IMG/VR virus record: IMGVR_UViG_3300023109_003600
Coordinates: 32,001 to 96,000 of that record
Reading direction: 5' to 3' (one strand)
DNA length: 64,000 nucleotides
Origin: a virus
Positions within the stretch are counted from its first letter, which is position 1. Each line of letters begins with the position of its first letter. Positions 10,976 through 61,821 of this stretch are shown piece by piece. The notes below the pieces were generated by a model that saw nothing but the letters and a program-made list of their open reading frames with translations, did no database searches and was not told the DNA's origin. A program made the position numbers and the translations under genes.

Positions 10976-13426
10976 GTGAACCATACAAAACAATTAGCTG
11001 TATTCGATCCCTGTACCGACTTTGAACATAAGAATGGAGATTTGCACAAGCTCCTAGAAAGCTACTTATCAATAGTTCCCTCTCAAGATTTTAAATTTGA
11101 CTGGTTTTTCTGTTTCAACAAGGGTCCAATTGAAAATTATGAAGATTTATTAATTTATGAATCTCACCCAAATATAAATAAAATTTACTTAATTGATGAA
11201 AAAATACCCGAAGAGGAAGATGTATATATACGTCAACACTTAATTAAATTTGAAAAAGGTTCAATAAAATATAAAGAATCAGAAAAACCAGAAAACCTAC
11301 CTATACTCGGAGGTGCTTCTGGGCCAAATTTAGGTTTCTACAGAGCAATAGATTTAATCTTTAACAATCATGATCACGAGTTCTTTTTTATGGTTGAGCA
11401 CGACAGTCATCCAATAAAAAAACATTGGTTTGACTACATGATTGAATACATTAATAAAGAAAAATTTTTAATAGCTGGAAGTAAATATAAAGGGCACCAG
11501 CCATGGCACTACGTATTAAATTACAAAGACCACCTAAATGGAATTGCAATTTATAAAAACGATAAAATGCTAATAGACTTCGTTAAAGAGTGCGAGAATT
11601 ATAACGAAAGATCAATAGATGAAAAAAATTGGTGCATAAATTTTGACATACTTTTGAGCGAATTTTCTAAAACAAACCAAGGAAAGAACATTATTAAACA
11701 TGATTCTCCTTTTTTGAATACTGATTTCATTACAAACATTAGTGACCCAAATGATTACCACATATCCCACGAAGACCTATTGAGGCATCATCCCAACACA
11801 ATTATAATTCATCAAAAAGAATATAAAGAACTAGAGTCATTCAGAGAAAGGTACCAAGCTGGAGAATTTAATTATCTTACTGATAAAAAAAGAATGGACA
11901 AATCTTGTATGTTCCTATTAAGACAACCAAGAACTGCAGGAAATTGGCTCATTAAATCTATTACATCAACACTATCAATAGAAAACAACCCAATAAACCT
12001 TGAGTACCCTATACCTTACTGCTTAAAAATAAAACTCCCTCAAGAAGAAGAAGGATCTTTTATAACTTGCGACTTTTTCTTTTTGTCTAAAAAATTAATT
12101 AAAAACTTTAAGAGAGGGTTTAAAAAAACAAAAGCAACCATAGAAGCAAAAGATTTTAAAACTGTATATAAAGATATTAAGCATTTCATCAGGCCAATAT
12201 TGATTAGTAACGACCCATTTGACTACAATAGTAACGCAAGATCAATCTTAAGTTACTTTAATGATTTTGATTACAACTTAGATTGCTATACTGTTTTAAG
12301 GAATCCATTCGACAAGACAAAATCTCTATATACAGAAAACTTAAAATCTGGAACGAATTCAAAAGATTCATTTATAGATTTCTTAAACTCCAACAAGATT
12401 CCAGACAGTTTCATAATTCGCTCTCTAACAAACCTAAAGCTATCAGAAGAGGTGGAGTTTTTTCACTATGAAGAAGCTTTACAAATCTTGAAACAGTTTG
12501 ATGTTTTCGACTTATCTCAAGCAAACGATATGTTGATACATAGTTTTAATAAAACCTTTAATTTAGATTACGAAACAAGAGACTTTCATATAGATAATTC
12601 TTACGCATTAAACTCTCAGCATTTAGTTACGCTACAAGAGGAAGATTTAAAAAATTACAAATACAAATTAAACAATTCGATCAATATGTTAGAATTCATT
12701 AAAGGAAGAACCTTCTTTGACCAATTAACTTATGATAGTTTAATAAAACAAACAGAAGATATAAGCTTTTTTTATAAAAACAAGTCGGTTAAAAACAATT
12801 TGTTTGATTTTGAACTTGCAAAAAGAGACCTAACTATTGCAACATTTATTCCTGCTCACAATCAAAGCAAAAAGCTTTTAGATGATTGGCGGACTTCTTG
12901 GCTGGCAAAAGGATTCAAAATATCAATAGGTTCGGAAGAAGAAATAAAGAATTCACAACTTTTATCAACTATTAAACATAATTTTCTCGAAGAGCTTTGT
13001 GCTGGCAGGGAAATCTTAGGCGAAGAACTAGAATCATTCAAAAAGCTTGTATTTATTGCAGAGCTAAACACCAAAGAACCTTTATATTTTTCAGATATTT
13101 ACCTTCTCAATAAATCCTTTGAACTGTGGGAGCCAGATTCTATTTTTCACCTAATGAATAAATCTTTATTTTCTTTTTTTAGCTCAAACTCTAGCCAAGC
13201 TCGAAATCTTATAGAGCTTTTATTAACTAAGAAGCATAAAATAAAAAATCTAACAGCATCAAATAAAAATTTTATGTTTACATTAAGCAACGTATGCAAT
13301 ATTTTAATTGACGACTTAAGAATTACAAGTTGGATAAGAACTACAGACCTTGATACCTTAAATCTTAATTTTATAAACGATGTAAGATCGACCCTCAATC
13401 AAGCGGACCACCAAATTGATAATTAA
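10976..13426 (+). CDS. Multidomain glycosyltransferase-like / sulfotransferase-like protein
   Basis: N-terminal domain paralogous to 15768 ORF (SGPN, EHD, IAGSKYKG, HLNGIAIY); middle PRTAGN and LRNPFD sulfotransferase motifs. Confidence 0.65.
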   Translation: MNHTKQLAVFDPCTDFEHKNGDLHKLLESYLSIVPSQDFKFDWFFCFNKGPIENYEDLLIYESHPNINKIYLIDEKIPEEEDVYIRQHLIKFEKGSIKYKESEKPENLPILGGASGPNLGFYRAIDLIFNNHDHEFFFMVEHDSHPIKKHWFDYMIEYINKEKFLIAGSKYKGHQPWHYVLNYKDHLNGIAIYKNDKMLIDFVKECENYNERSIDEKNWCINFDILLSEFSKTNQGKNIIKHDSPFLNTDFITNISDPNDYHISHEDLLRHHPNTIIIHQKEYKELESFRERYQAGEFNYLTDKKRMDKSCMFLLRQPRTAGNWLIKSITSTLSIENNPINLEYPIPYCLKIKLPQEEEGSFITCDFFFLSKKLIKNFKRGFKKTKATIEAKDFKTVYKDIKHFIRPILISNDPFDYNSNARSILSYFNDFDYNLDCYTVLRNPFDKTKSLYTENLKSGTNSKDSFIDFLNSNKIPDSFIIRSLTNLKLSEEVEFFHYEEALQILKQFDVFDLSQANDMLIHSFNKTFNLDYETRDFHIDNSYALNSQHLVTLQEEDLKNYKYKLNNSINMLEFIKGRTFFDQLTYDSLIKQTEDISFFYKNKSVKNNLFDFELAKRDLTIATFIPAHNQSKKLLDDWRTSWLAKGFKISIGSEEEIKNSQLLSTIKHNFLEELCAGREILGEELESFKKLVFIAELNTKEPLYFSDIYLLNKSFELWEPDSIFHLMNKSLFSFFSSNSSQARNLIELLLTKKHKIKNLTASNKNFMFTLSNVCNILIDDLRITSWIRTTDLDTLNLNFINDVRSTLNQADHQIDN

Positions 13427-14099
13427 ACATACGAATGTCTTGCTGGAATTTATCTTCTACAATTTCCTTAGTCTGCTTATCGTAATATAACCAATAAGGT
13501 TTCAATATCTTTTGTTTTATTTTTTGAGTTTGATTAACTGTAGGTATTTTATAATCCTGATCAATTTCAAGTATACGAAAAACCTTTTTAAGATCTTCTT
13601 CAAAATTTTCAAACCGACCAAGAAAATCTACAGATATTTTTTTTTGGGAGTTGCAGACAAACTGCCATTGAGGGGCAACATGATTCCTCCAACTGCACTT
13701 GAAATTTTTCAATATATACTCGTTAAAAGTTCTAGGAATTCTTCTTATATTTCCCCTACAACCGCAGCCACTATTTTTTTTAACATATAGATATTCACTA
13801 ACCATTCTATCCCACGGATTTCTCACGAATGCGAATTTAAAGTAAGAGCTTAAGTCAGCAATATTTCTATAGGAAGCGATCTCATTAAGGGTAAAATGCT
13901 GAGTCCATTTTTTGTCAAGGCTGTGAATTTTTTCTCTTTCTTTTTTTAAATCAAAGTTCTCATCATTAAAATCTTCAAAATAATTACCCAGCAATACATT
14001 TTCTACAGAACCTCCCCCTGTCTTAGGAACATGAATAAAAATTACATTTTTTTTGTTTAAATTATTGAGTATCACTTTGAAAATATTTGCCCAAGTCAT
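13395..14099 (-). CDS. Sulfotransferase family 2 protein
   Basis: FIHVPKTGGGS, FVRNPWDRMVSEY, GRFENFEED. Confidence 0.9.
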   Translation of the reverse strand: MTWANIFKVILNNLNKKNVIFIHVPKTGGGSVENVLLGNYFEDFNDENFDLKKEREKIHSLDKKWTQHFTLNEIASYRNIADLSSYFKFAFVRNPWDRMVSEYLYVKKNSGCGCRGNIRRIPRTFNEYILKNFKCSWRNHVAPQWQFVCNSQKKISVDFLGRFENFEEDLKKVFRILEIDQDYKIPTVNQTQKIKQKILKPYWLYYDKQTKEIVEDKFQQDIRMFNYQFGGPLD

Positions 14100-18555: not shown

Positions 18556-19197
18556 ATGAACAATAACTTATTAAGATTCAACTCTCAACAAAAATATATT
18601 ATATTTGATTACGAAACCTGTAATTTAAATCTTGGTAGTACAGAAAATAAACCTTGGCAACTTTCATTTATCGTAGCTTCTAATAATAAAATTCACGAAA
18701 CTCATGATTACTATTTGCGCTGGGAAGACTTAAATATTTCTAAAGATGCTGCGAAGATTACTGGTTTCTCAAAATCAAAATACGACAAGCTTGCTGTATG
18801 CCCCAGAAAAGCTTTAGATCACTTTGAATCTTTCTTATATAATAAAAATTATATTCCAGTGGGCCACAACATATTAGGCTTTGATGTTTACATTCATAAT
18901 ATACATAGAAAACTCTTAAACAAGAAACCTGATTACAGCTATATCAATAGAGCTATAGATACAAATTGCCTAGCCAAGGGAATTGCTAAACAATTAACTA
19001 AGCCTCAAAGCAAAAGCACAATTGCTTGGCAGTATAGCTTAAATCAAATCATAGAAAGGGGGCTAAAAACAAGTTTGCAAATGTGTGCGAAAAAATACAA
19101 GATAGATTTTGACCCAACTAAGCTTCATGATGCACTGTATGATATTAAAATTAATCACCAAGTACTTAACAAACAGTTATGGGAGGTAGAAGTATGA
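18556..19197 (+). CDS. DEDDh 3'-5' exonuclease (DnaQ/epsilon-like)
   Basis: FDYETC, GHNILGFD, LHDALYD. Confidence 0.9.
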   Translation: MNNNLLRFNSQQKYIIFDYETCNLNLGSTENKPWQLSFIVASNNKIHETHDYYLRWEDLNISKDAAKITGFSKSKYDKLAVCPRKALDHFESFLYNKNYIPVGHNILGFDVYIHNIHRKLLNKKPDYSYINRAIDTNCLAKGIAKQLTKPQSKSTIAWQYSLNQIIERGLKTSLQMCAKKYKIDFDPTKLHDALYDIKINHQVLNKQLWEVEV

Positions 19198-21749: not shown

Positions 21750-21766
21750 TGTATCTCATTATGAAT

Positions 21767-24202
21767 ATGGAACTTAAACCCAACTTTACACCCCGAGCGC
21801 AAGAAGTTATTGCAGCTTCAAGAAAGCTAGCTTTAAACTATAATAAAAGAGTAGTTAACGAAGAACATTTATTTCTTGCTTTAGCGAAAGTAGATACTCA
21901 ATCGCTAGAAACTCTCTTTTCGGCATTTGATCTAGAAAGAAAAAATCTTATACTTTTTATATCCAAAAAGCTTAAAAAAAATACATCAGCGCCAACAAAA
22001 AAAAATTACTTCTCAGGAGAATTTAAATCAATCCTAGGGGGAGCGGTATTAGAAGCCGAAAAACACGAGCATGACTACATAGGAGTACAACATATACTAC
22101 TTTCAGTGTTCAAAAAACAAGACAATACAATTTGTCTTTTTTTTATAGAAAACGGAATCAGTGTCGAGTCATGCATATTAACAATTAGATCTCAATTTTT
22201 AATTAGTTCTTCTTCTGAAACTTTAGAGTCTAGCAGGCTATCCTCAGAATCAAATTATATCCCTAAAATAGAAGAAGAATATAAAGAAGGTCTAAAGTCT
22301 AATTTCTTTCATTGCATGAACACAAAAGCAATGCAAGGAAAATATGACGAAGTTATTGGTAGAGATCAAGAAATTAAAGATATTTCGGAAGTATTATGCA
22401 GGAGAAGTAAAAATAATCCTATACTCCTAGGGGATGCAGGAGTTGGAAAAACTGCAGTTGTAGAAGGTTTATCTCAAAAAATAGTAGAAGGTTCTGTAAC
22501 AGAATTTCTGTACAAAAAAAGAATTTATTCGCTAGATATGGCAAGCATGATTGCTGGCACAAAATATAGAGGGCAATTTGAAGAAAGGCTCAAAAATACT
22601 ATGGAAGAAATCCAGAAAGATAAAGACGCGATTATTTTTATAGACGAAATTCACTCAATTGTAGGCGCGGGAAGCGCTGAGGGAACTATGGACGCAGCAA
22701 ATATACTAAAACCAATGCTAGCAAGGGGCGATATCATGTGCATAGGAGCGACCACGCAAGAAGAATACAGAAAAACTATATTAAAAGATGGAGCATTAGA
22801 TAGAAGATTTCAACCGATCCATATTAAAGAGCCAACGCCTTCGGAATGTAAAGAAATATTAAACGGTCTCAAAGAAAAATATGAATCATTTCATCAAGTT
22901 AAGTATGAGGAAAATGTTGTAGAAAATTCCATCAAACTGTCCTCAAGGTTTATCTTAGATAGACAGCTTCCAGATAAAGCCATAGACTTACTAGATCAAG
23001 CTGGATCCAAAGCTAAAATTTCAGCATTTAAGCGTCCTGAAGAAGCGTTACAAATAGAAGAAGAGTTAAACGGTCTATACGAAATAGAGTCTACTTCTAG
23101 CGAACCTAATGTAATTATGAAGAAAAGAGATGCCTTAATGAAAAAATATCAAAATATAATTGAAGGTTGGGCAGAACAATCCACTTTAAAGAAAATTTTT
23201 GTAACAAATAAAGAATTATTTCAAGTAGTATCCCAAAAAACTGGGGTACCTATCGAAGATATCTCGAGCTCTGATACAGACAAATTTCTAAATTTAGAAA
23301 ACTCCTTAAAAAATGTCATCATCGGCCAAGACCCAGCAATTGAATCTATTTCAGAAACACTTATAAGGAACAAAGCAGGCTTAAGGGATGAACAAAAGCC
23401 TATAGGTAGTTTTTTATTTTTGGGTAGTAGCGGTGTAGGTAAAACTTACCTAGCAAAACAGGTGGCGAGTTTAGCGTTCGGAGACTCTAGTGATTTAATA
23501 CATATAGATATGTCAGAGTTTTCAGAGCAAGCTTCAACGGCTAAATTTGTAGGGGCATCGCCAGGATATATAGGTTTTGAGTCATCTGGAGCAATTACAG
23601 AAAGAGTAAGAAAGAAACCTTATTCAGTTTTATTGTTTGATGAGGTAGAAAAAGCTCACGAAGACGTGACGAACTTGCTACTACAGATACTAGAAGAAGG
23701 TAGGCTAACAGATAGTTCAGGAAGAACAATTTCCTTTAGAAATGTAATCGTAATCATAACAGGAAATATTGGGTCAAATTTCATGCAAAAGAATAATTCA
23801 GTAGGATTTATGCCTTCAAATTCGGAAGAAGACATTAATCAAAAGGTTATCGCAGAAGCAAGAAAAAAACTAAAACCAGAGCTCATCAATAGGATAGAGT
23901 CTATAATAAACTTCAAGAATTTCGAAGAAGCTCATTTGAAAAAAATCTCTGGACTGGAATTAGAAAAAAGCATGTCAAGAATAGAGGGCTCTATGGATAA
24001 AATTAATATAAAACCTTCGGTTTTTTCTTACATTGCTCAAAAAGCGCTAGAGCTCAATGATGGAGCGAGGCCAATCAAAAATATAATTAAAAAAGAAGTA
24101 GAGAACCCTTTGGCAAAATTAATTCTTCAAAACAAATCCTACGAGTCTAAAACACTAAGTATATCCGTAGTAAAAAATTGCATAAAAGTTTTATTGACTT
24201 AG
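21767..24202 (+). CDS. clpC: ClpC-type AAA+ unfoldase
   Basis: Clp-N repeats (NFTPRAQ), two Walker A motifs (GDAGVGKT, GSSGVGKT), LPDKAIDL, FDEVEKAH, SVGF ClpP-docking loop. Confidence 0.9.
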   Translation: MELKPNFTPRAQEVIAASRKLALNYNKRVVNEEHLFLALAKVDTQSLETLFSAFDLERKNLILFISKKLKKNTSAPTKKNYFSGEFKSILGGAVLEAEKHEHDYIGVQHILLSVFKKQDNTICLFFIENGISVESCILTIRSQFLISSSSETLESSRLSSESNYIPKIEEEYKEGLKSNFFHCMNTKAMQGKYDEVIGRDQEIKDISEVLCRRSKNNPILLGDAGVGKTAVVEGLSQKIVEGSVTEFLYKKRIYSLDMASMIAGTKYRGQFEERLKNTMEEIQKDKDAIIFIDEIHSIVGAGSAEGTMDAANILKPMLARGDIMCIGATTQEEYRKTILKDGALDRRFQPIHIKEPTPSECKEILNGLKEKYESFHQVKYEENVVENSIKLSSRFILDRQLPDKAIDLLDQAGSKAKISAFKRPEEALQIEEELNGLYEIESTSSEPNVIMKKRDALMKKYQNIIEGWAEQSTLKKIFVTNKELFQVVSQKTGVPIEDISSSDTDKFLNLENSLKNVIIGQDPAIESISETLIRNKAGLRDEQKPIGSFLFLGSSGVGKTYLAKQVASLAFGDSSDLIHIDMSEFSEQASTAKFVGASPGYIGFESSGAITERVRKKPYSVLLFDEVEKAHEDVTNLLLQILEEGRLTDSSGRTISFRNVIVIITGNIGSNFMQKNNSVGFMPSNSEEDINQKVIAEARKKLKPELINRIESIINFKNFEEAHLKKISGLELEKSMSRIEGSMDKINIKPSVFSYIAQKALELNDGARPIKNIIKKEVENPLAKLILQNKSYESKTLSISVVKNCIKVLLT

Positions 24203-24680: not shown

Positions 24681-24721
24681 TTTTTTAATCATAAAACCAC
24701 AAACAAGTGGTATTATATAAT

Positions 24722-27004
24722 ATGAAAATATTATTTACCATAATTTTTATTGCTGCATCAAGCCTTGCAGGCGCAACCGTACCGACCCTCTTCTTCCAAG
24801 ACGGCAGATCCTTGGAAGCTAATATCATTGAAGCAAATTTCACACACGCCTTGATTGAAAGACGAAGAGATTTGCAGCGCTTTAGAATTGCGATCAACTC
24901 TTTAACAGAAGATAATCAAGCGTTTATAAAAAATAATTTTACACCCAGTCACCAAGCTTTACCCAAATTTAAAAAACCCTTAAACGAAAAAGATCTGCTT
25001 AGTCACTCTAGATATATAGATACTTTAATCGAAAGAAAACTTAGATCATATAATCTACAGCCAAACAAAGAAGCGGAAGACGAAGTTTTTCTGCGAAGAA
25101 CCTATCTTAAGATTATAGGCAGAACACCCTCCCTTTTAGAAGTTAAAGGGTTTGAAGAAAATAGAAGCAAAAACAAAAGGCGAGAGCTTATAGATTCTCT
25201 TTTAGGTAGCGAGGGTTATGTTAGCCATTGGTTTAATTTTTGGGCAGATATTTTAAGAATAAAAGATAGATTAAACAATAGAGTATCAGGCATACCTTAT
25301 AAAAATTATGTCAAGAAGTTTGTATCCAACAATCAACCTTATGACGAATGGGTAAGGGAATTGCTTTCTTCTTCTGGGCCTCTATGGAAAGAAGGTAGCG
25401 AAGGAGTAAGTTATTTTGCAAGAGATGTCAATATGCCTCTTGATAACATGTCAAACACTGTTAGAATTTTCTTAGGAACAAGTCTGGAATGCGCGCAATG
25501 CCATGATCATCCTTTTGACAGATGGACGCAAAAACAGTTTTATGAAATGGCTGCATTTACAAGCGGGTCAACAAATCTTAGGAGAAAAAACGTACCAAAC
25601 TTGGGCAAATTCAATCAATTAGTCCGTGAAGAACAGAAAAGGTTAGAGCAAGAAGGAGATCCAAATAAATCTAGAAGATTAAGGGATGCATCACGATCAG
25701 TGCAAGACATCCTACAAACAGGATTAGATAGTTTAGGTTCGGGAAAAATTAATTTACCGAAAGATTATCAATATGATAATGCGAAACCAAATGAGCAACT
25801 ATCAGGCAAAACTATTTTTGGATTAGATGTAGAGATTAAAACTAAAGCTCCAGAATCAGGCACTAGAGAAATCTACGCCAACTGGTTAGCTTCAGAATCT
25901 AACCCTAGATTTACAGCGGTAATAGTTAATAGACTATGGAAGGAAGTTTTTGGGTTGGCATTAATTGAGCCGCTAGATAATATGTTTGATGACACGATAC
26001 CTACAGATATAAAACTACAGCTACACCTCGAAAAAGTTATGATTGCCTTAAATTATGATTTAAAAGAATTTTTAAGAATATTATATAATACAAAAACTTT
26101 TCAGAGAGCTTCTGTTATTAGAGATGTTATACCGCGAGATGAAAAAGATACAGTCATGCCTATAGAAGTAAAGTGGATTATAGCGGGGCCAAATACTGAA
26201 AAGCAATCTCAAAATGCTGTACCATTCTTCTACCAAGGGCCTTTAGTTGAAAGGATGAGTGGCGAACAAATTTGGGACTCTTTAGTTAATTTAACTTTTA
26301 ATAATATAGATTCAAGAAAATTACAGCAGAACACAAAAGGATATGAAGACTTCGATAGATTCTCAAGCATGACTGGAGAAGAGCTTTTTGAAAATATTAT
26401 GAATAAACTCAACAACAAAGAAAATGCAGGGTCAAAAATAGCGACAAAATTTACAGAACCTATTAATACAGAATGCCCTATAAAACCAGGCAGGGAAATC
26501 GACCCAACCTTATTAGCCTTAAATGAAGATGGTCAGACAGTAGCGTTTTGTTGTGAATCTTGCCTAGACAAATTCAAATCTCAAAAGAAACAAAAAAAAG
26601 ATGACTACAAACAAAACTACACTAAGGACAGGAATTCAGTCAGGGCGTCCGAACTAAGCTCTCCAGCACCCATAGGGCACCTCATAAGGGAGTTTGGCGG
26701 CTCAGACAGAGAACAGATAGAAAACTCGCACAAACAAGCTTCAGCAACCCAAGTACTTAATTTATTAAATGGTTTTGTAGAAACAAGGTTATTAAAAAAC
26801 AAAAATTCAGAGATAGTAAAGCAAATCAAATCACAAAAAAATTTAGAAGACAAAATTAAAGTTGCGTTCAAATCAATCCTAAATAGAGAAGCTTCAATAT
26901 CAGAATTAAAATTATTTAAATCGTCACTTAAACAGGGTAAAGAGGTATATAAAGAGATAGTATGGACGCTGGTAAACAGTCACGAATTTATATTTATTAA
27001 ATAA
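24722..27004 (+). CDS. Secreted DUF1549 + DUF1553 (PSD1) protein with N-terminal SHD1-like domain and Cys-rich YHS-like insert
   Basis: Signal peptide; FLRRTYLKIIGRTP, WADILR, FLGTSLECAQCHDHPFD, VNRLWKEVFG, WTLVNSHEF; CPI..VAFCCESC. Confidence 0.9.
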   Translation: MKILFTIIFIAASSLAGATVPTLFFQDGRSLEANIIEANFTHALIERRRDLQRFRIAINSLTEDNQAFIKNNFTPSHQALPKFKKPLNEKDLLSHSRYIDTLIERKLRSYNLQPNKEAEDEVFLRRTYLKIIGRTPSLLEVKGFEENRSKNKRRELIDSLLGSEGYVSHWFNFWADILRIKDRLNNRVSGIPYKNYVKKFVSNNQPYDEWVRELLSSSGPLWKEGSEGVSYFARDVNMPLDNMSNTVRIFLGTSLECAQCHDHPFDRWTQKQFYEMAAFTSGSTNLRRKNVPNLGKFNQLVREEQKRLEQEGDPNKSRRLRDASRSVQDILQTGLDSLGSGKINLPKDYQYDNAKPNEQLSGKTIFGLDVEIKTKAPESGTREIYANWLASESNPRFTAVIVNRLWKEVFGLALIEPLDNMFDDTIPTDIKLQLHLEKVMIALNYDLKEFLRILYNTKTFQRASVIRDVIPRDEKDTVMPIEVKWIIAGPNTEKQSQNAVPFFYQGPLVERMSGEQIWDSLVNLTFNNIDSRKLQQNTKGYEDFDRFSSMTGEELFENIMNKLNNKENAGSKIATKFTEPINTECPIKPGREIDPTLLALNEDGQTVAFCCESCLDKFKSQKKQKKDDYKQNYTKDRNSVRASELSSPAPIGHLIREFGGSDREQIENSHKQASATQVLNLLNGFVETRLLKNKNSEIVKQIKSQKNLEDKIKVAFKSILNREASISELKLFKSSLKQGKEVYKEIVWTLVNSHEFIFIK

Positions 27005-27016
27005 AAAAAAAGAAAA

Positions 27017-28300
27017 ATGAACATAAACGAATTAGGAAGAAGAGAATTTATAGCTCAAGCAGCAAAAAGTTGCTTGGGAGTAGGCTTGATGCCAATGGCA
27101 GGAGCTTATATACATAATAGCGTCGAGGCACTACAGCCAGGAGTTAGACCAGCAACAGCCCGTCATGTTATATATTTAAATATGGCAGGAGCAATGTCAC
27201 ACCTAGACACCTTTGGTCCAAAACCAGAAGTCCCAGATATTCAAGGTCCGACAAAATCAATCGCAACTACAGCAGATGGAATTCTATTATCGGAAAACTT
27301 ACCGAATACTGCGCAGTTTATGCATAAAGCTTCCGTCATTAAAACTATGGTATCTAGCCAGGGAGCGCACGAACAAGCTAGCTATCTCATGCACACTAGC
27401 TATCTCAAGAGAGGTACAATTGTTCATCCTACTTTTGGAAGTTGGGTTTCAAAGCTGGCAGGCTCAATCAATACTACCGTACCTGCAAATATTAAAATTG
27501 GAGGTGGAGGAGGAGGAGCTGGTTTTCTTGAATCAAAATATGGTGCTCTGCCAATAAATAATCCTCGCTCTGGTTTGGCTAATAGTAAAATGGCTTCTTA
27601 TTTAGATTTAGAAACCTTTCAAGGCAGAATTTCTTTGGCAGAGAAATTAAATCAAAACTTTTCTACAGATTTTCAATTAAAACAAGTAAGAGCTTATTCT
27701 GATTTATACAGGGATGCAGTTAAGCTAATGAATAGCGATGACTTAAATGCTTTTGATATAACTAAAGAGTCGCAGCAAACAAGCGAACTTTATGGTGCTA
27801 CTAATTTTGGGCAAGGTTGCCTTTTAGCAAGAAGGTTAGTTGAAAATGGCGTTCGTTACGTTGAAGTTACAAGAGGTGGATGGGATACGCATGATAATAA
27901 CTTTGAAAGAGTTGCGGCAAATTGCGCGGATATTGATCAAGCTTTAAGCGGTTTGCTTTACGATTTAGATAGACGAGGACTTTTAAGCGAAACGCTTGTA
28001 GTGTTGACTTCTGAATTTGGAAGGACTCCAAACATCAACGGTAGAGACGGAAGAGATCATTGGCCATATTGCTTTACGGCTTTTATGGCGGGAGGAGGAA
28101 TCAAAGAAGGCTTCTCTTACGGAGAAAGTGACAAGGCAGGTCGAAGCCCAGTGGAAGGAAAAGGCATTAAGCCAGAAGACTTAAATGCTACTATAGCATA
28201 CGCCTTAGGGTTGTCAATAAATAGTCAGCAGTACTCCCCCTCAGGAAGACCTTTTACGATAGCGAATAAGGGAGAACCTTTACTTGACGTTATTTCTTAA
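27017..28300 (+). CDS. DUF1501 family protein (Tat-exported)
   Basis: RREFI twin-arginine signal, GAMSHLDTF, GQGCLLARRLVE.GVRYV, GWDTH, SEFGRTP, GRDHW, AGGG. Confidence 0.93.
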   Translation: MNINELGRREFIAQAAKSCLGVGLMPMAGAYIHNSVEALQPGVRPATARHVIYLNMAGAMSHLDTFGPKPEVPDIQGPTKSIATTADGILLSENLPNTAQFMHKASVIKTMVSSQGAHEQASYLMHTSYLKRGTIVHPTFGSWVSKLAGSINTTVPANIKIGGGGGGAGFLESKYGALPINNPRSGLANSKMASYLDLETFQGRISLAEKLNQNFSTDFQLKQVRAYSDLYRDAVKLMNSDDLNAFDITKESQQTSELYGATNFGQGCLLARRLVENGVRYVEVTRGGWDTHDNNFERVAANCADIDQALSGLLYDLDRRGLLSETLVVLTSEFGRTPNINGRDGRDHWPYCFTAFMAGGGIKEGFSYGESDKAGRSPVEGKGIKPEDLNATIAYALGLSINSQQYSPSGRPFTIANKGEPLLDVIS

Positions 28301-28311
28301 CTTATAATTAT

Positions 28312-29118
28312 TCATTCTGGGCGCTTACCCAAAGGTTTCCCATCTTGACCAATTTGCCCATCTCTAATTTTTGTAGCAGAGACTTCTTGCAATTCTTTAC
28401 TTAGTTCCAATTGTTCGATATTGTAACCAACACCTCTTCCATAAAATACGTCCATAATATTTGGAAGCTCTACGACTTTAATTTTATTTCCAAACTCGAT
28501 ACAAGCAGAATGTATCTCTGCTTTTACCTTTTCAAAATTGTAGGGATTACTATCATTAATTCCACCAACATCTCTTAATGCTATGCAACACTGACCTGTT
28601 CTTTTTATGGCTTCGGCAACAAGACTCTTGTGTCCAATGTGGAATGGTTGGTATCTACCTATTAGTAGTGCGGTAGGCGCCTGATTATCCCACACTTCGC
28701 TTTCGTTTAATTTTTCAATAACTTTATCGACCCACTCTTCTGGAGTTCCATCAGTAAGTCTTACATCATAATTCATAGGACTTTCAAACAATTTGTTCGT
28801 ATCTTCGTATCTACCCTCCAAGATTCTATCTACCCAAATTACAAAATCTGCATTAAAAGATTCTCTTGTTTTTTGAGTTGGGCAGATAAAGTCTGCGATA
28901 ACATAACACCCTCCCATTTTCGCCCAATCACAAAGTTTGCCCATTCTCTTGGCATGAGACAATCTATCTTCAGGAGAAAAACCAAGTTCAGAATATATAT
29001 CTTGCCTAACAGCATCAGCATTAAACCATGCAGCTTGCAATTTTGGAACGAGCTTTTCAGCTAAAGTTGTCTTGCCAGAACCTGGCAGACCCATAATTAA
29101 TATTTTTCTTTTCGTCAT
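28312..29118 (-). CDS. APS-kinase-like P-loop kinase fused to a HIGH-type nucleotidyltransferase
   Basis: Reverse complement encodes GLPGSGKT, NADAVR, LGFSPEDR, DFICP, then GRYQPFHIGH, YGRGVGY and SATKIR. The ORF track labels it + but it is on the - strand (stop TGA reads TCA at 28312). Confidence 0.88.
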   Translation of the reverse strand: MTKRKILIMGLPGSGKTTLAEKLVPKLQAAWFNADAVRQDIYSELGFSPEDRLSHAKRMGKLCDWAKMGGCYVIADFICPTQKTRESFNADFVIWVDRILEGRYEDTNKLFESPMNYDVRLTDGTPEEWVDKVIEKLNESEVWDNQAPTALLIGRYQPFHIGHKSLVAEAIKRTGQCCIALRDVGGINDSNPYNFEKVKAEIHSACIEFGNKIKVVELPNIMDVFYGRGVGYNIEQLELSKELQEVSATKIRDGQIGQDGKPLGKRPE

Positions 29119-29150
29119 AACCCTATTATACACTTTTATTTTTTTTATCC

Positions 29151-29179
29151 TTGACTTATTTTTTTAAAAATAGTAATAT
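29151..29179 (+). promoter_or_regulatory. sigma70 promoter
   Basis: TTGACT-17-TAATAT. Confidence 0.7.
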
Positions 29180-29192
29180 ATACTTATATCAA

Positions 29193-29729
29193 ATGAATTT
29201 ACTAGAAAACACAAAAACATATTTAGTAGGACACATGCAATATCTTAGCGGAAGAAATTGGCGCGAAGAAATAACAGGGCAATTAAGCTCCTTAAATATA
29301 ACATGTTTTGATCCATACAAAAAACCATTCATGAAAGATGTTGAAGAAGACGAAGCCTCTAGGCTTGAAATGGAAACATGGATGAAGACCAAACAGTATG
29401 ATCGAGTTACGGATAGAATGAAAACCGTAAGAGCATACGACCTAAACTTAGTTGATCGTTCAGATTTTATTATTGCCCATCTTGTTCCAGATGTAGCTTC
29501 GTGGGGCAGTGCAGAAGAAATAGTTACAGCAGTACGAATGAAAAAACCTATTTTTATTAGCATGGAAGGTGGAAAGTCAAAGACACCTTTATGGATGCTA
29601 GGAATGCTACCTCATAAATATATTTATAATAGTCTTGACGAAGTAGTAGAAATGTTGTATGCTATAGACAATGGAAACAAACCGATAGATTCAGATAGGT
29701 GGAGATTACTACAGAAACAATTCAGATAA
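29193..29729 (+). CDS. Nucleoside 2-deoxyribosyltransferase-like protein
   Basis: YLVGHM..WRE, FDPY, YDL..VDRSD, GSAEEI, KKP. Confidence 0.7.
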   Translation: MNLLENTKTYLVGHMQYLSGRNWREEITGQLSSLNITCFDPYKKPFMKDVEEDEASRLEMETWMKTKQYDRVTDRMKTVRAYDLNLVDRSDFIIAHLVPDVASWGSAEEIVTAVRMKKPIFISMEGGKSKTPLWMLGMLPHKYIYNSLDEVVEMLYAIDNGNKPIDSDRWRLLQKQFR

Positions 29730-31810: not shown

Positions 31811-32073
31811 TCGAAAAAGGAAAAAATTTACAGTTTTATTCTTGGGTAAGAGAAGGTGAGTCAATTACTGTTGTGGGAACAAGGCTTCCAGAAAAACCCT
31901 TAACGTTTTCTTTTTTTTTAGGTAAAGAACAATTAAACGATACAGACAGCTCGATTGTCACAGACTTTGTAACAGAATTAAAAGAATCAATGTCAAAAAC
32001 TAAAAGTAAAAATGCGAAAAACAACCCTAAAAAAGTCGCAAGAAGACCAAGAAGGGTGCCAAGAAGACGTTAA
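31807..32073 (+). CDS. Hypothetical protein with Arg-rich tail
   Basis: ATGA overlap; ends RRPRRVPRRR. Confidence 0.65.
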   Translation: MIEKGKNLQFYSWVREGESITVVGTRLPEKPLTFSFFLGKEQLNDTDSSIVTDFVTELKESMSKTKSKNAKNNPKKVARRPRRVPRRR

Positions 32074-33945: not shown

Positions 33946-34656
33946 ATGCCACCAAACAATAAAAAAAACTTCAAAATACCGCAGCTCGAACAAACAATAA
34001 AAGTTAACTGCCTTAAATTAGACGAAAAACAATTATCATTTTTAGAAAAATCTCTATCTGAAGATACAAAAGTTATGATAATTGCTGGTCCCGCAGGAAC
34101 TAGCAAAACCTACATGTCTGTCTACTCAGCGATGAGATTGCTGTCTTCAGACCCTAAAAAAGATTTAATTTATATTAGAACTGTAATTGAGAGCGCAGAC
34201 AAGGGAATGGGTGCCCTGCCAGGAGATCTAGATGAAAAATTCAACCCGTACATACTCCCATTACTAGATAAACTTGAAGAAATTTTGCCCAAAAACTCTA
34301 CATTAAAGAGAGATTTACTAGACAAAGGCCGAGTTTCGGCATTACCTGTAAATTTCCTAAGAGGGGCAAGCTGGAATAATAAAATTATAGTTGCTGATGA
34401 AGCGCAAAACTTCTCCTTCAAAGAGTTAACGACACTAATTACTAGAATAGGCGAGAACTGTACCCTATTTATATGTGGAGACCCAATGCAAAGCGATATC
34501 AACGGCAAGAGTGGCTTCGGAGATTTAATTAACATTTTTAACGACGAAGAAAGCCAGGAAAAAGGCATTCATAGTTTTTTCTTTAACCATGCAGACATAA
34601 AGAGAAGCAAAATATTAAAATTCATAATACAAAAAATCCAAAAATATGGGGGCTAA
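33946..34656 (+). CDS. phoH: PhoH-like ATPase
   Basis: GPAGTSKT, LPGDLDEK, FLRGAS, DEAQN, TRIGE, GDPMQSD. Confidence 0.95.
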   Translation: MPPNNKKNFKIPQLEQTIKVNCLKLDEKQLSFLEKSLSEDTKVMIIAGPAGTSKTYMSVYSAMRLLSSDPKKDLIYIRTVIESADKGMGALPGDLDEKFNPYILPLLDKLEEILPKNSTLKRDLLDKGRVSALPVNFLRGASWNNKIIVADEAQNFSFKELTTLITRIGENCTLFICGDPMQSDINGKSGFGDLINIFNDEESQEKGIHSFFFNHADIKRSKILKFIIQKIQKYGG

Positions 34657-38489: not shown

Positions 38490-38524
38490 TGGACGATATA
38501 CATTAACATGTGTATATATATTAC

Positions 38525-38935
38525 ATGAAAGTAGTAGCAGTCAGCGGGTACTTTGACCCAATACATGTCGGACACCTAGAATATCTAGAGCAAGCAAAAA
38601 AATTAGGAGATAAACTTGTTGTAATCGTAAACAATGATTATCAATGTACCTTAAAAAAGGATAGACCCTTCATGAAAGAAAATGATAGGTTAAAAATTGT
38701 TTCAGCATTAAAAGTTGTAGATGAAGCTTTTTTGTCTATAGATCAAGATAAAAGCGTATGCCTTTCTTTAGAGCATATCAAGCCTAATATTTTTGCAAAT
38801 GGAGGAGATAGGACCTTAGGAGAAATTCCAGAGTCGAAAATTATGAAAAAATTTAATATAGACATGGTGGACGGATTAGGAGACAAGATTAGAAGCTCTT
38901 CAGATCTTACGGGATTGAAGCAAAAAAACGCCTAG
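38525..38935 (+). CDS. Cytidylyltransferase-family (TagD/RfaE/FAD-synthase-like) protein
   Basis: SGYFDPIHVGH, VNND, FANGGDR, RSSS. Confidence 0.88.
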   Translation: MKVVAVSGYFDPIHVGHLEYLEQAKKLGDKLVVIVNNDYQCTLKKDRPFMKENDRLKIVSALKVVDEAFLSIDQDKSVCLSLEHIKPNIFANGGDRTLGEIPESKIMKKFNIDMVDGLGDKIRSSSDLTGLKQKNA

Positions 38936-40573: not shown

Positions 40574-41152
40574 ATGGCCAGAGTGTTTCAAATAGGTTTT
40601 AATAAGTGCGGGACAAGATCGCTTTACAAGCTTTTCGCAGACAACTCAATTCCTGCCCTGCACTGGCATACAGACCAAGGAAGAATTGCAAAAAAAATGC
40701 TTAAAAATTTTTTAAACGGAGAAAATATTATCCCAAAAGATTACGATAAGATTATTTTTTTTTCTGACTTAGAAGATGTTTACGGCTCAAATTATTTGCC
40801 TATATTTGCTTACAGGTTTTATCGAGAGATATTTTATCAATTTCCAGATGCAAAATTTATCCTCAACATAAGACCTTTAAATGAGTGGCTCAACTCAAGG
40901 GTAAGCCATGACGACGGCAAATACCTAAATCATTGTTTAAGTATGCTTAAAATATCAAAAACGGAACTAATAAAACATTGGGAGTCCCATTTTTTAAATC
41001 ATGCAGCAGAGGTTCAAAATTTTTTCAAAGATAAACAAGAAAAGCTTTTAACTTTTAATATTTCTACGGACAATGTAAGTAAAGTGATTGACTTTTTTCC
41101 AGAATTTAATCTTCAAGCAAAACATTGGCAAAAAATTTCTAAAGGTATATAA
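40574..41152 (+). CDS. Sulfotransferase-like P-loop protein
   Basis: IGFNKCGTRSL, FPDAKFILNIR..WLNSR. Confidence 0.8.
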   Translation: MARVFQIGFNKCGTRSLYKLFADNSIPALHWHTDQGRIAKKMLKNFLNGENIIPKDYDKIIFFSDLEDVYGSNYLPIFAYRFYREIFYQFPDAKFILNIRPLNEWLNSRVSHDDGKYLNHCLSMLKISKTELIKHWESHFLNHAAEVQNFFKDKQEKLLTFNISTDNVSKVIDFFPEFNLQAKHWQKISKGI

Positions 41153-43629: not shown

Positions 43630-44288
43630 AAATATACTATTATTACGACGAGAAATTCAAATCACTTAAAAATAATTTCGAAAAGTCGCTTAAAGATAAT
43701 TTCGAGAAACACCCAATTCAAACAAATAATTTTGATGTTAAGTCAGAAAAATTTTGCAGAGAAGAAATTGGAGGAGGCAGAGATTCTTGGCTAATGAGGT
43801 TCGACGTTATACTAAAAGGTATTAGAGAGAGCATGGGAGAGATAATTTTATTATCTGATGTAGATATAATTTTCTTCAGGCCAGCCACCGAAGCAATACT
43901 TACATGCATGAACCATTCAGACCTCGTATTCCAAAGAGAATCATTTGATCATGGTTTAAATGTAGGCTTTATTGCAATCAAATGCAACAAAGAGACTGAA
44001 AATTTCTGGCAAACAGCTAGAGATATTTGTTATCAAAAAAAATCCTGGGATCAACAAGTAGTAAACGATTTAATCTATAAAGAAAATTATAAAATTAAAT
44101 GGAGTCGCTTTCCTCAGCAATTCTATAATGGGAGCCAATCAAAAGTTTTATCTAAAAACGGACAGCCTTTTTGGGATTTACAAGGTAAAACTCCTAGCGA
44201 TTCTATATTATATCATGCGAACGCGGGAAAAACTTTAAAAGAGAAATTTGCTCAATTTGATATTGTATCTAAACTTATTAGAGTTTGA
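43626..44288 (+). CDS. Nucleotide-diphospho-sugar transferase (GT77-like)
   Basis: SDVDIIFF, NVGF, WDQQVVN, YHAN. Confidence 0.78.
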   Translation: MKIYYYYDEKFKSLKNNFEKSLKDNFEKHPIQTNNFDVKSEKFCREEIGGGRDSWLMRFDVILKGIRESMGEIILLSDVDIIFFRPATEAILTCMNHSDLVFQRESFDHGLNVGFIAIKCNKETENFWQTARDICYQKKSWDQQVVNDLIYKENYKIKWSRFPQQFYNGSQSKVLSKNGQPFWDLQGKTPSDSILYHANAGKTLKEKFAQFDIVSKLIRV

Positions 44289-44899
44289 TGATAGATCACA
44301 GGACTAAATCTATTTTTATTCATATGCCTTGTACTGGAGGAACAAGCATCGAATCAGCTTTACTTAACGATCCGAGTGGCGGGAGATCAGTAGATATTAA
44401 AGAAAAGCATATAAACTCCTTGACGGCCAAAATAATTTACAAACAATACTGGAATGATTATTTTAAATTCAGTTTTGTAAGAAACCCCTGGGGACGCATG
44501 CTTTCTATGATGAAGTTTAGAGATAAAAGCCTATACGGCATAAAAGAATTAGACGGGAAAATTAATCTTGATGAATACTTAAAAATTCACCCATTTATTG
44601 AAGTAGACCCAAGAGCTAGGAATTATAGTAAAAATTGCTACATTAAAGGATCTGTTTATCAAAATTTTTTAAGTGAAGACCTTGATTTTGTCGGCAAATT
44701 TGAAAACCTGCAAGATGATTTTAATAAAGTATGCCGAGAGTTAAACATTGAGTCAAAAGAATTGCCAATTATTAATTCTAGCAACTATAAAACTCCTATC
44801 AAAAATTACTTCAACGAAAGATCTAACAATCAAATTCGAAAAATGTTCGAAAAAGATATATTATATTACAAATACAATGAACCTTGGAAAAATCAGTAA
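44288..44899 (+). CDS. Sulfotransferase family 2 protein
   Basis: FIHMPCTGGTS, FVRNPW, GKFENLQDD. Confidence 0.85.
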   Translation: MIDHRTKSIFIHMPCTGGTSIESALLNDPSGGRSVDIKEKHINSLTAKIIYKQYWNDYFKFSFVRNPWGRMLSMMKFRDKSLYGIKELDGKINLDEYLKIHPFIEVDPRARNYSKNCYIKGSVYQNFLSEDLDFVGKFENLQDDFNKVCRELNIESKELPIINSSNYKTPIKNYFNERSNNQIRKMFEKDILYYKYNEPWKNQ

Positions 44900-47587: not shown

Positions 47588-48220
47588 ATGAAACTAAAAA
47601 TATTCAATTTTGGTCTACCGAGGACGGGGACAACGAGTTTTCATTTTTTTATGAAAAAACTAGGCTTTAAATCCTTACATTCGGGCAACGGTGTCATAAA
47701 CGATATTTTTCCATCAAATTATTTCAATTTTGTTAAAAATCAAAATGACCCTAGAAATATTTTAAATAAATTAATATACAGAAATGAAGTATTTTCTGAC
47801 TTACCTTGGTATTCTAATGCGTTAATGAACGTGTTGATAAAAAAATATGAAAACGATCCTAACGTAAAATTTGTTGCAACAATTCGAAATAAAGAATCCT
47901 GGCTAAATAGTATAAAAAAACTCAATTCCCCCAATTGGATAAATGGTGCTGGATCTGTAGAATTTCACAAATATGAATACAATGGTATATTTGACAAGTA
48001 TAGCGAATTTTGCGAGACAGAGCTGAACCAATTATTAGGAGATTACTATAACAAACACTACGAACTACTAAAAGAATTATGCGCGGACTATTTGTTATTA
48101 AATATAGATAATATAAATGAGCTAAAAAGCAATATTACTATACTGCTCCCTGAAAAAGAATCTGATATTAATAATATTGAATATCCACACAAGGGCGCAC
48201 ATATTACAAGTTTTTCTTGA
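47588..48220 (+). CDS. Sulfotransferase-like P-loop protein
   Basis: GLPRTGTTS, SDLPW, R...SWLNS. Confidence 0.8.
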   Translation: MKLKIFNFGLPRTGTTSFHFFMKKLGFKSLHSGNGVINDIFPSNYFNFVKNQNDPRNILNKLIYRNEVFSDLPWYSNALMNVLIKKYENDPNVKFVATIRNKESWLNSIKKLNSPNWINGAGSVEFHKYEYNGIFDKYSEFCETELNQLLGDYYNKHYELLKELCADYLLLNIDNINELKSNITILLPEKESDINNIEYPHKGAHITSFS

Positions 48221-58159: not shown

Positions 58160-58594
58160 ATGAATAAAATAAAAACAGGAATTACATTTAGCACATTTGA
58201 TTTACTTCACACAGGACATATTGCTATGTTAGCTGAAGCAAAATCTGTTTGTAATTATTTAATATGTGGACTTCATGTTGATCCACAAGTTGAGCGACCA
58301 AATAAAAATAAACCTATACAAAGTGTTGTTGAGCGTTATATTCAATTATCTTCGGTGCAATATGTTGATGAAGTGATTCCATATAATCTTGAAAAAGATT
58401 TGCATGATATTTTATTGACTTACCCTATTAACGTAAGAATTATTGGTGCAGACTATAAAGGTGTTGAATTTTCGGGCAAAGATATTTGCTTGACAAAAGG
58501 CATAGAGATTTATTACAATAAACGCTCTCACAATTTCTCCAGTACAGAGTTAAGAAAAAGAATACAACAAGCAGAAGATGAAAAACAAACTTAA
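58160..58594 (+). CDS. Glycerol-3-phosphate cytidylyltransferase-like protein
   Basis: FSTFDLLHTGH, KNKPIQS, GADY, RSHNFSST. Confidence 0.88.
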   Translation: MNKIKTGITFSTFDLLHTGHIAMLAEAKSVCNYLICGLHVDPQVERPNKNKPIQSVVERYIQLSSVQYVDEVIPYNLEKDLHDILLTYPINVRIIGADYKGVEFSGKDICLTKGIEIYYNKRSHNFSSTELRKRIQQAEDEKQT

Positions 58595-60316: not shown

Positions 60317-61177
60317 ATGATTGACCCTCAACAACATAGAAATATCCCCTGCTTTTATCATGTACCTAAAAATGCTGGAACATATACAATTAGTTTAATG
60401 ATATTATTTTTTAGATTATTAAGGCGGGATCGCACAACCTGGCAGTCTCGAGTATCAGGGCCTAGTGCAAGAAATATTGTAATACATCTTAATAATCTAG
60501 AAATTGCTCGTCTAATTGCGGGAGACCCTAATGATATATGCAACCAAGCCCCAATTTTCAAACGCGGATCAGAAGACAAAACACATTATACAATCAATTT
60601 AAGCGATTGCTCTGCAGAGACATTTAGTTGTTTGAATATTTTTTCAATAGTTATTGAGTCGGATGGATTCATATACCACGATCAAATTAAAAAGTCTTTT
60701 GAAAAATATAATTTAATTGACTTTATGATATTGCGAGAACCCATCAAGAGAGTAATATCTTTCTTTGACTACATCAATTCAGACAAAGCAAAACACGAAC
60801 CAACTTATGGAATTATTCCTAATAAATTTGCAGAATATGCAAAAAGTCAATACACAGAAGATAGCTGGTTAATTCGTCAATTTGCAAATGTAGATAACTC
60901 CAAGGGAATTACTCTAGAAAACTATAATACAGCCCTCAATATTTTAAAAAAGTTTAAATCATGCGACATCAAAGATACAGATTCCTTTGTAAGAAATATA
61001 TTTAAAGAATCTTTAAATTTAAAACTAACGCAACAGGACATGCAAGCCAAGGGTTGGAGTACAATTCGCAACTCAAAATCAGAAAATCCCACAATCATCG
61101 ACGAAGAATCACGTAAAATATTACAACAAAGAATGAAATACGACATTGATTTATACAACAAATTACTATCATGCTAA
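60317..61177 (+). CDS. Sulfotransferase family 2-like protein
   Basis: YHVPKNAGT, LREPIKRVIS.F.Y, DIDLY. Confidence 0.8.
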   Translation: MIDPQQHRNIPCFYHVPKNAGTYTISLMILFFRLLRRDRTTWQSRVSGPSARNIVIHLNNLEIARLIAGDPNDICNQAPIFKRGSEDKTHYTINLSDCSAETFSCLNIFSIVIESDGFIYHDQIKKSFEKYNLIDFMILREPIKRVISFFDYINSDKAKHEPTYGIIPNKFAEYAKSQYTEDSWLIRQFANVDNSKGITLENYNTALNILKKFKSCDIKDTDSFVRNIFKESLNLKLTQQDMQAKGWSTIRNSKSENPTIIDEESRKILQQRMKYDIDLYNKLLSC

Positions 61178-61821
61178 TATCACACTCGCATAAATTCATA
61201 ACAATTGATATTCCAAAAACTGGCTCAAGATCCTTGCGAGAAACTTTTGTACCCCAAAATGTAATTGATATAATTGGCCTACCACAGCCAGACTCAGAGT
61301 ATTATCAACACGGAACTGCTCAACAATGCTCTAATTCTCTATACAACTTAATGAAAGACTTTGCAGACTATTTTTCATTTACCATTGTTCGAAATCCTTG
61401 GGATCGTTATTATAGTTTCTTTAAATATTTTAAAGAATATGCCGAGAAATATAAAAACAAAGACTCAAGCATCACATGGAATGCTCCTGAAATTAACCAA
61501 GGAAAAATGTGCGAACAATTATTTGCAAATAAAACAGATGAAACTGTATTTCGAAATATTATCATAAATAATGTATGCCAAAGTGATTATTATACGAATA
61601 AAAATGGCGAAATTATGGTCTCCCATATAGCAAAATTTGAAAACATCAACCAAGAATTTGAATCGCTCTGCAACAAAGTGAATGTAAAATATTCGCCATT
61701 ATTTCACGGAAATAAAAGTGCATCAAAAACTAGATATACAGATGCTTATACCCAGCTGACCATTGATTTAGTCGCAGAAAAAGAAAAAAGTGTAATAAAA
61801 TTAAAAGGATATGAATATTAA
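61171..61821 (+). CDS. Sulfotransferase family 2 protein
   Basis: IDIPKTGSRS, VRNPWDRYYS, KFEN. Confidence 0.85.
   Translation: MLISHSHKFITIDIPKTGSRSLRETFVPQNVIDIIGLPQPDSEYYQHGTAQQCSNSLYNLMKDFADYFSFTIVRNPWDRYYSFFKYFKEYAEKYKNKDSSITWNAPEINQGKMCEQLFANKTDETVFRNIIINNVCQSDYYTNKNGEIMVSHIAKFENINQEFESLCNKVNVKYSPLFHGNKSASKTRYTDAYTQLTIDLVAEKEKSVIKLKGYEY

Follow-up and report, generated by a model that had tools for sequence, protein, structure and literature searches.

Fusion gene and its product

The DNA analysed here (the window) is a stretch of 64,000 nucleotides from a large marine phage, positions 32,001 to 96,000 of the virus record IMGVR_UViG_3300023109_003600, which comprises 121,649 bp and has a CheckV completeness estimate of 90%. 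An open reading frame (ORF) on its minus strand (28312..29118) encodes a fusion protein of 268 aa, counted from its ATG, followed by a stop; with an alternative GTG start further upstream, at 29133, the product would have 273 aa. The 268-aa protein consists of a trimmed P-loop domain resembling adenosine 5'-phosphosulfate (APS) kinase (residues 1–142; 28693..29118, minus strand; motifs GLPGSGKT, NADAVR and LGFSPEDR) and a minimal nucleotidyltransferase (NT) domain (residues 143–268; 28315..28692, minus strand; motifs HxGH, YGRxVGY and SATxIR), a candidate ATP sulfurylase. The full-length phrog_10255 "kinase" profile was matched (1.3e-49; residues 5–253, profile positions 3–226 of 230), and the AlphaFold2 model, built from 53 diverse homologues, has a mean predicted local distance difference test score (pLDDT) of 93.9.

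A sequence-only reading of the window had proposed that this protein is a miniature synthase of 3'-phosphoadenosine 5'-phosphosulfate (PAPS), and the motifs that it named (GLPGSGKT, NADAVR, LGFSPEDR, GRYQPFHIGH and SATKIR) were all found in the 268-aa translation. The comparative evidence given below supports the proposal, in which the NT half is a sulfurylase by inference, and the fusion is probably a compact two-step PAPS synthase.

Kinase half

The Pfam family APS_kinase (PF01583) was matched by residues 6–88 (E 2.2e-12; 47.7 bits, gathering cut-off 21.1); the match is partial, with only profile positions 5–92 of 152 aligned. Adenylyl-sulfate kinase models ranked first for the N-terminal half in NCBIfam, all far below their curated cut-offs. 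Sequence matches in the PDB were APS kinases (e.g., 2yvu, 5.4e-8), and the PDB entries that Foldseek listed when given the full-length model were almost entirely APS kinases and APS-kinase domains of PAPS synthases (2ofw, 4.4e-9; 7yq1, 9.9e-8; template modelling scores normalised to the target, 0.6–0.76).

APS kinases are characterised by the substrate motifs DGDxxR and LGFSxxDR. With stand-alone CysC proteins (2ofw, 1m7g, 7yq1) the kinase half shares the fold, the P-loop and the D..R, LGFSxxDR and (I/V)SP-type motifs; it differs from them in covering only the first 92 of the 152 profile positions, in having about 12 fewer lid residues and in carrying Asn in place of the first Asp of the canonical DGD (NADAVR). 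When aligned with two canonical CysC sequences (alignment A4), the kinase half was identical to them at the P-loop, D35, R38, F47, D51, R52 and an E..R..D stretch. Among the 53 diverse fusions, K16 of the Walker A motif GLPGSGKT (residues 10–17) and R38 were invariant, and D35, F47 and R52 were kept in at least 90%.

Two properties of this half weigh on the other side. The APS-kinase equivalog TIGR00455 gave 43.5 bits against a cut-off of 138.7, so that the kinase half was not filed as an equivalog-level CysC, and the lid is incomplete, about 12 residues of its second half being absent after E..R..D in comparison with the two canonical CysC sequences. Its substrate could therefore differ from that of CysC. 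Judged by sequence and predicted fold, the kinase half is nevertheless a trimmed APS kinase, and it very probably serves APS/PAPS metabolism.

Nucleotidyltransferase half

The NT domain has a size of about 110–125 residues. Its Pfam match to CTP_transf_like (Cytidylyltransferase-like; residues 152–176) is weak (9.3e-5), and the top NCBIfam model for the C-terminal half is the NadM-type nicotinamide mononucleotide (NMN) adenylyltransferase NF003786 (5.1e-8). A profile of the NT family matched only NadM and NMN adenylyltransferase (NMNAT) in the PDB (2qjt, 1.5e-7; 1f9a, 7.6e-6). The stretches GRYQPFHIGH and SATKIR fit the NMNAT-type motifs GRxQPxHxGH and SxTxIR. Residues kept in at least 90% of the sequences are G154, R155, Q157, P158, H160, G162, H163, R182, Y226, V230, Y232 and S247, and G227, R228, G231 and R252 were invariant among the 53 diverse fusions; such conservation suggests a catalytic domain rather than a decayed one.

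Modelled alone, the NT half had a pLDDT of 93 and three main strands. A Foldseek search with this model gave no match at E<=1e-3. In VIA-align the highest score was obtained with phosphopantetheine adenylyltransferase (PPAT; 4nah, Z 10.1), followed by archaeal NMNAT and NadM (Z 9.2–9.6) and, among other enzymes, cytidylyltransferases (Z 7.7–8.1). The ATP sulfurylase of Thermus (1v47) scored Z 8.4 (116 aligned residues, root-mean-square deviation 3.1) and other ATP sulfurylases 5.5–6.6. Sequence and predicted fold place the domain in the HxGH superfamily without deciding its acceptor substrate. Structure comparison, which the sequence-only reading had put forward as a check, gave a divided answer: the kinase half matched APS kinases, while the NT half scored higher with PPAT and NMNAT than with ATP sulfurylases.

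Further observations against a PAPS synthase come from this half. By sequence and fold it is nearest to NMNAT and PPAT and not to Sat. A search of the whole phage genome with PF01747 (Sat), the NT half included, gave no match at E<=1, and ATP sulfurylases were absent from the PDB matches of the NT family profile at E<=10. PF01747 fell on the NT region in only two of 50 relatives and then below threshold (13–14 bits), at most a faint direct similarity in sequence. Local alignment of the NT profile with 37 Sat sequences by hhalign was weak (probability 11%, E 2.7e-3). In Sat the motifs HxxH, GRD and SGTxxR follow one another in this order, and the weak alignment is collinear, HxGH, YGRD and SATxIR of the NT lying opposite HxxH, VGRDHAG and SGTKVR of Sat; this is no more than suggestive, since an R-G-Y stretch of archaeal NMNAT also aligns with the NT at the middle motif. 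The PUA-like N-terminal domain and the catalytic domain of about 210 residues of Sat have no counterpart in an NT domain of about 125 residues.

The lack of significant similarity to Sat would suit an arrangement in which the kinase half alone takes part in sulfate activation, acting on APS made by the host, and the NT has some other task in the pathway or close to it, for example regulatory nucleotide binding or the transfer of an adenylyl or cytidylyl group to another acceptor in glycan tailoring. We regard this arrangement as unlikely, though the least unlikely of the alternatives considered. A purely regulatory NT is disfavoured by the conserved catalytic HxGH, GR and SxT..R residues; further evidence against this arrangement comes from the relatives and their gene neighbourhoods.

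NadM and archaeal NMNAT are the best matches of the NT domain (Z up to 9.6), and together with the NMNAT-like motifs they call to mind a reversed, NadR-like salvage of NAD, in which a nucleoside or nucleotide kinase and an NMN adenylyltransferase would rebuild NAD+ during infection. The NT half scores far below the NMNAT equivalog cut-offs (TIGR01527, 20.3 against 181.2 bits; NF003786, 32.5 against 397). About 25 residues of the NMNAT from M. jannaschii (1f9a) have no counterpart in the NT family profile (HMMER alignment); we take this central insert to form the NMN pocket and to carry the NMN-binding residues. The kinase half resembles APS kinase and not ribosylnicotinamide kinase. One JGI automatic name, [quoted passage not shown], agrees with salvage, which we consider highly improbable.

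The PPAT and cytidylyltransferase scores admit a further reading, namely a kinase and NT pair for the activation of sugar phosphates or alcohol phosphates (comparable to HldE, LicA/LicC or TagD), or a pair resembling PPAT and dephospho-CoA kinase that makes a 3'-phospho-ADP cofactor, in either case for the glycan islands of the phage. JGI automatic names of relatives include "phosphopantetheine adenylyltransferase". The kinase half is specifically similar to APS kinase, and this reading too is quite improbable; the relatives described next bear on it further.

Relatives and domain architectures

Among 8,000 scored candidates, 7,176 proteins were relatives of the fusion at E<=1e-3, many of them marine and on contigs of up to about 200 kb. 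A separate search gave 2,608 cluster representatives at E<=1e-3. A pattern search of IMG/VR confirmed at least 579 fusions (579 of the 600 matches listed). In cultured phages the fusion corresponds to phrog_10255, whose members include gp32 of Xylella phage Salvo, its counterparts in relatives of Salvo and AAY80_227 of Stenotrophomonas phage DLP_6; these have the same two domains and 35–40% identity over 93–95% of the length. Existing names for such proteins are "kinase", "hypothetical protein" or "Adenylylsulfate kinase", besides the JGI name already mentioned, and the phrog_10255 records carry no annotation of the NT half or of a connection with sulfation. The occurrence of the fusion in small phages without glycan islands, such as Salvo (55.6 kb), argues against the activation of sugar or alcohol phosphates.

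A second architecture, NT-CysC, has the two domains in reverse order. The first 114 residues of its representative P0270 (311 aa) are an NT domain, 42% identical to the NT half over 105 residues (2e-26), and the rest is a full-length CysC (PF01583, 5.7e-63) that passes TIGR00455 (233.6 bits, cut-off 138.7). At least 120 clusters from marine sources are 63–100% identical to P0270 over 92–100% of its length; NT-CysC is therefore a family and not an assembly artefact. NT-CysC resembles the phage protein in joining the shared NT domain to an APS kinase and differs from it in domain order, in its full-length kinase and in its place on a bacterial chromosome beside gltB and a POT transporter (locus L111). 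The joining of NT and APS kinase in two opposite orders implies that these domains were fused twice, independently. An equivalog-level CysC as the NT partner in P0270 is a further point against sugar or alcohol phosphate activation.

Standalone viral NT relatives of about 120 aa form large clusters, and the short kinase occurs without an NT beside a sulfotransferase in Ralstonia phage phiRSL1 and alone in RsoM2USA; both observations favour a kinase that works without the NT. No longer architecture holding the NT was found among proteins of 470–2000 aa, which is weak evidence.

Some metagenomic proteins (P0122, P0186, P0187, P0195, P0200, P0219 and P0236) join the short kinase, in some cases together with the NT, to a DUF4118 membrane domain, which may stand at either terminus; the module may thus also exist in a form anchored in the membrane.

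The NT in cellular genomes

Completeness was unstated for every cellular genome used, which limits the weight of all absences reported in this section. Full-length NT-CysC was found in two genome-contig records, one of an OCS116-cluster bacterium (L111, a 98.8-kb contig) and one of a gammaproteobacterial metagenome-assembled genome (a short contig); the latter genome also has CysD and CysH. The L111 contig is clearly chromosomal, with genes for glutamate synthase (gltB), a POT transporter and a carboxyltransferase.

NT-CysC was present in four of the 25 genomes from the order to which the OCS116-cluster bacterium belongs, once only as a fragment. Sat (PF01747) was found in none of the 25. PF01507 (CysD) gave five weak partial matches, confined to the first ~80–94 profile positions of frames of 312–432 aa, which we infer to be other PP-loop enzymes rather than convincing CysD. 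The only PF01583 matches in the 25 genomes were the three complete NT-fused genes. An APS kinase without a known source of APS would make sense in this order if the fused NT supplied the APS; a kinase working alone leaves unexplained why NT-CysC is the only APS kinase where Sat and convincing CysD are missing. Sulfotransfer_3 genes were present in five of the 25 genomes, and in two of them (G049 and G069) they lie 7–18 kb from NT-CysC on the same contig. The association of NT and Sulfotransfer_3 across the order was not significant (2x2 table, Fisher p 0.17), which gives the sulfation proposal no help.

A further search with the NT half covered 401 genomes sampled evenly across the class, of which 13 had a match at E<=1e-5 and 11 at E<=1e-25. 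The NT was fused to, overlapped or adjoined an APS-kinase or APS-kinase-like gene in nine of nine resolved cellular loci, a count that leaves out one of the 13 genomes and the loci L202 and L209; at L211 the match is weak and partial, and no kinase accompanies it. This coupling, in two domain orders, is likewise left unexplained if the kinase acts alone.

Two alphaproteobacterial genomes of 0.8–0.9 Mb contain an operon of the cysH type, in which a PAPS_reduct gene, a DUF2061 membrane protein, a short APS-kinase-like gene and a 117-aa NT overlap or abut in this order (L201, 51–1836; L200, 1486–3271) and an RNase E/G-like gene adjoins. The reductase carries CC and CxxC motifs, presumably the mark of APS-using reductases. 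Whether it uses PAPS or APS, the operon encodes a reductase and needs a sulfurylase, and the position of the pair after cysH is a third feature that a kinase acting alone does not explain. The DUF2061 protein may be a sulfate carrier, which is a guess.

The location of the pair beside a PAPS/APS reductase in cellular relatives suggests that its general role is the supply of APS and PAPS. NAD salvage offers no logic for a canonical CysC fusion or for a cysH operon and was rejected as the principal reading, the partner of the NT being CysC and its context cysH or sulfotransferases. Sulfur assimilation as the cellular context likewise disagrees with the activation of sugar or alcohol phosphates.

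Ten NT-bearing genomes were checked for known sulfurylases. Sat was found in one (G260), PF01507 genes of CysD size in two (G316 and G469) and neither in seven. With Sat or CysD also present in three of the ten, the NT is not always the sole sulfurylase candidate, which counts against it.

Sulfotransferases in the phage

Six full sulfotransferase genes had been reported in the window by the sequence-only reading, and Pfam bore out all six. One lies on the minus strand (13395..14099; Sulfotransfer_2, 3.2e-26) and is a presumed PAPS consumer. The others are on the plus strand: 40574..41152 (Sulfotransfer_4, 3e-9), 44285..44899 (Sulfotransfer_2, 1.8e-9), 47588..48220 (Sulfotransfer_4, 8.4e-15), 60317..61177 (Sulfotransfer_2, 3.2e-5, in the C-terminal part of a 286-aa protein, 24.6 bits with a cut-off of 22) and 61171..61821 (Sulfotransfer_2, 5.2e-8). 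Two more sulfotransferases lie outside the window, giving at least eight in the 121,649-bp record. An additional sulfotransferase domain embedded in the 816-aa ORF at 10976 and a remnant near 63238 had also been listed; neither was detected by Pfam or by a custom sulfotransferase hidden Markov model (HMM) run in six frames over the window, which leaves their absence unproven. The phage genome gave no match to PF01747 or PF01507 at E<=1, and no PAP phosphatase of the CysQ type was found in it at E<=0.1.

ORFs were called on 105 fetched loci, and the fusion was present in 103 of them (28 close, with at least 59% identity, and 75 distant). In an unbiased clustering of the neighbouring genes the Sulfotransfer_2 family was the only cluster spread widely in both close and distant loci (27 loci). 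By an HMM built from this cluster, 38 of the 103 loci (17 of the 28 close ones and 21 of the 75 distant ones) have sulfotransferase-like genes no more than 10 kb away from the fusion, a count that is somewhat uncertain because a Pfam check of ten distant neighbours was mixed and to that extent unfavourable (four over the cut-off, three weak, three without a match). In 19 loci the distance was at most 1.1 kb, and seven of 19 fusion lineages (defined at 70% identity) had such neighbours.

With the best sulfotransferase of the window as query, 25 of the 103 fusion loci were matched (blastp), compared with six of 50,697 phage records (tblastn). Of these six, three (one of DLP_6 and two deposits of phiRSL1) belong to the 16 records in which the kinase or the fusion occurs; the hypergeometric probability of this overlap is 5e-10, or 5e-7 when distinct phages are counted.

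Among 50 fusion-bearing records, most of them small fragments, the Pfam family PF03567 was found in 13, and in one of the four that are at least 90% complete; PF17784 was found in two, both weak and below the cut-off. These numbers go against a strict link between fusion and sulfotransferases. PAPS reductase or CysD was found in none of the 50 fusion-bearing phage records, and Sat over the cut-off in none. The co-occurrence of fusion and sulfotransferases that the sequence-only reading had expected was thus recovered in part: it extends over several phage lineages and is not universal. As it is not universal, the module is better called an APS/PAPS supply unit than a purely glycan-sulfation accessory.

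Salvo itself has a neighbourhood (L001, 4650–6741) in which gp30, a NADAR domain protein (3.4e-25), adjoins the fusion gene gp32. This neighbour does not fit the sulfation reading and lends some support to NAD salvage. Salvo gp29 has a weak Sulfotransfer_4 match (20.1 bits, 17.7 in a second scan, cut-off 22.8) and a PRSRS loop at the place of the sulfotransferase PAPS loop; pairwise BLAST with the two Sulfotransfer_4 proteins of the window was not significant.

Two other viral loci were inspected. The 222,461-bp complete virus record G001, which underlies locus L036 and has a fusion 71% identical to the one studied here, gave ten PF03567 matches in nine frames, one of them with an internal TAA. 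In phiRSL1 (L198, 5262–11499) an operon comprises the short kinase ORF238, three glycosyltransferases, two sugar nucleotidyltransferases and the sulfotransferase ORF232; ORF238 has an unrelated C-terminal extension of about 80 residues without an HxGH motif.

Proposed pathway and comparison with known systems

In the pathway proposed for the fusion as a PAPS synthase, the C-terminal HxGH domain would adenylylate sulfate (ATP + sulfate -> APS + pyrophosphate), and the N-terminal trimmed APS kinase, as its homology, fold and retained motifs suggest, would phosphorylate the 3'-OH of APS to give PAPS. The sulfurylase step is thermodynamically unfavourable for ATP sulfurylases generally; fusion of the two halves would drain it. 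The resulting PAPS would feed the eight sulfotransferases of the phage, which are sited in large glycan-tailoring islands, and with its own PAPS supply sulfation could be independent of a host that may be without sulfate activation.

An APS kinase and a candidate APS-making enzyme on one polypeptide are also the arrangement of human PAPSS1/2 (1x6v), of the Sat-APS kinase of Aquifex aeolicus (2gks) and of CysN-CysC. The kinase half of the model was aligned by Foldseek to 1x6v (5.7e-8) and 2gks (7.4e-7), and the NT half superposes on the sulfurylase domains of both (Z 6.5 and 6.0, respectively). The phage protein has 268 aa, whereas bifunctional PAPS synthases have about 550–630, and its kinase lid is shortened. 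The known ATP sulfurylases are of two forms, Sat and CysDN, and genome-based predictions of sulfate activation rest on finding either. The phage protein does not belong to the Sat family. Sat combines a catalytic domain of about 210 residues with a PUA-like domain, in contrast to the ~110–125 residues of the NT half, which PF01747 does not match; CysDN is a GTPase-coupled heterodimer, in contrast to the small single NT domain found here. NadM and archaeal NMNAT (2qjt, 2qjo, 1f9a), the best relatives in sequence and fold, share the GRxQPxHxGH start and the SxTxIR motif near the end; the NT half is about 50 residues shorter, and its partner is an APS kinase instead of a Nudix domain or a ribosylnicotinamide kinase.

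On balance we incline, a little less firmly than for the fusion itself, to the view that the NT domain represents a third class of ATP sulfurylase, minimal in size, which would be derived from NMNAT-like adenylyltransferases, always coupled to APS kinase, and would replace Sat or CysDN in many phages and streamlined marine bacteria. No description of the fusion or of a third ATP sulfurylase was found in the literature, the accessible part of PMC6864105 included; supplements may list such genes.

A minimal third ATP sulfurylase would be new biochemistry. A form of about 110 residues would change predictions of sulfate activation for abundant marine bacteria, and this ability would extend to some lineages believed to lack it. 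Phages would carry a portable, self-contained sulfation system, with donor synthesis and up to ten sulfotransferases per genome (G001). Such a system would matter for sulfated glycans at surfaces, for recognition between phage and host and for the marine sulfur cycle. A PAPS synthase of 268 aa could serve as a tool for enzymatic sulfation.

Other genes of the window and of related loci

Three more cytidylyltransferase-like genes (frames of 142–154 aa) are present in the phage, two in the window (38510–38935 and 58160–58594) and one outside it (G000:C1:97824–98099). Their PF01467 scores (1e-14 to 1e-16) are much above that of the NT half. Presumably they are donor-activating enzymes for the glycan islands; they indicate a demand for nucleotide-activated donors in the phage, which is of some weight for an NT that transfers to an acceptor other than sulfate.

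The window also encodes the large subunit of a class I ribonucleotide reductase (4188–6614), a DnaE-type DNA polymerase (19179–21749), a large ATP-dependent protease (phrog_4871; 21749–24202) and PhoH (33946–34656). In a protein search the best cultured-phage relative of the DnaE had at most 34% identity, so that the collection searched contains no cultured phage closely related to this one.

On the plus strand (24707–28300) a 765-aa ORF is followed by a DUF1501 protein (PF07394, 1.8e-107), whose gene is convergent with the fusion gene and ends 12 bp from the fusion stop. The divergent neighbour of the fusion (29151–29729, plus strand) has weak matches resembling nucleoside 2-deoxyribosyltransferase, all below the cut-off (PF15891, 2.1e-6, 28.5 versus 30 bits). 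Homologues of this gene were found by BLAST in only seven fusion loci, and it is unrelated to Salvo gp29; no conserved neighbour link was seen.

In the distant-lineage loci L057–L110 the zone around the fusion is variable and is made up of conserved families of neighbouring genes. Pfam identified among these neighbours a tryptophan halogenase (L085), a 2OG-Fe(II) oxygenase (L100), an Asp/Arg hydroxylase (L072), HSP20, SNase, CHAP and a pyrimidine-dimer glycosylase.

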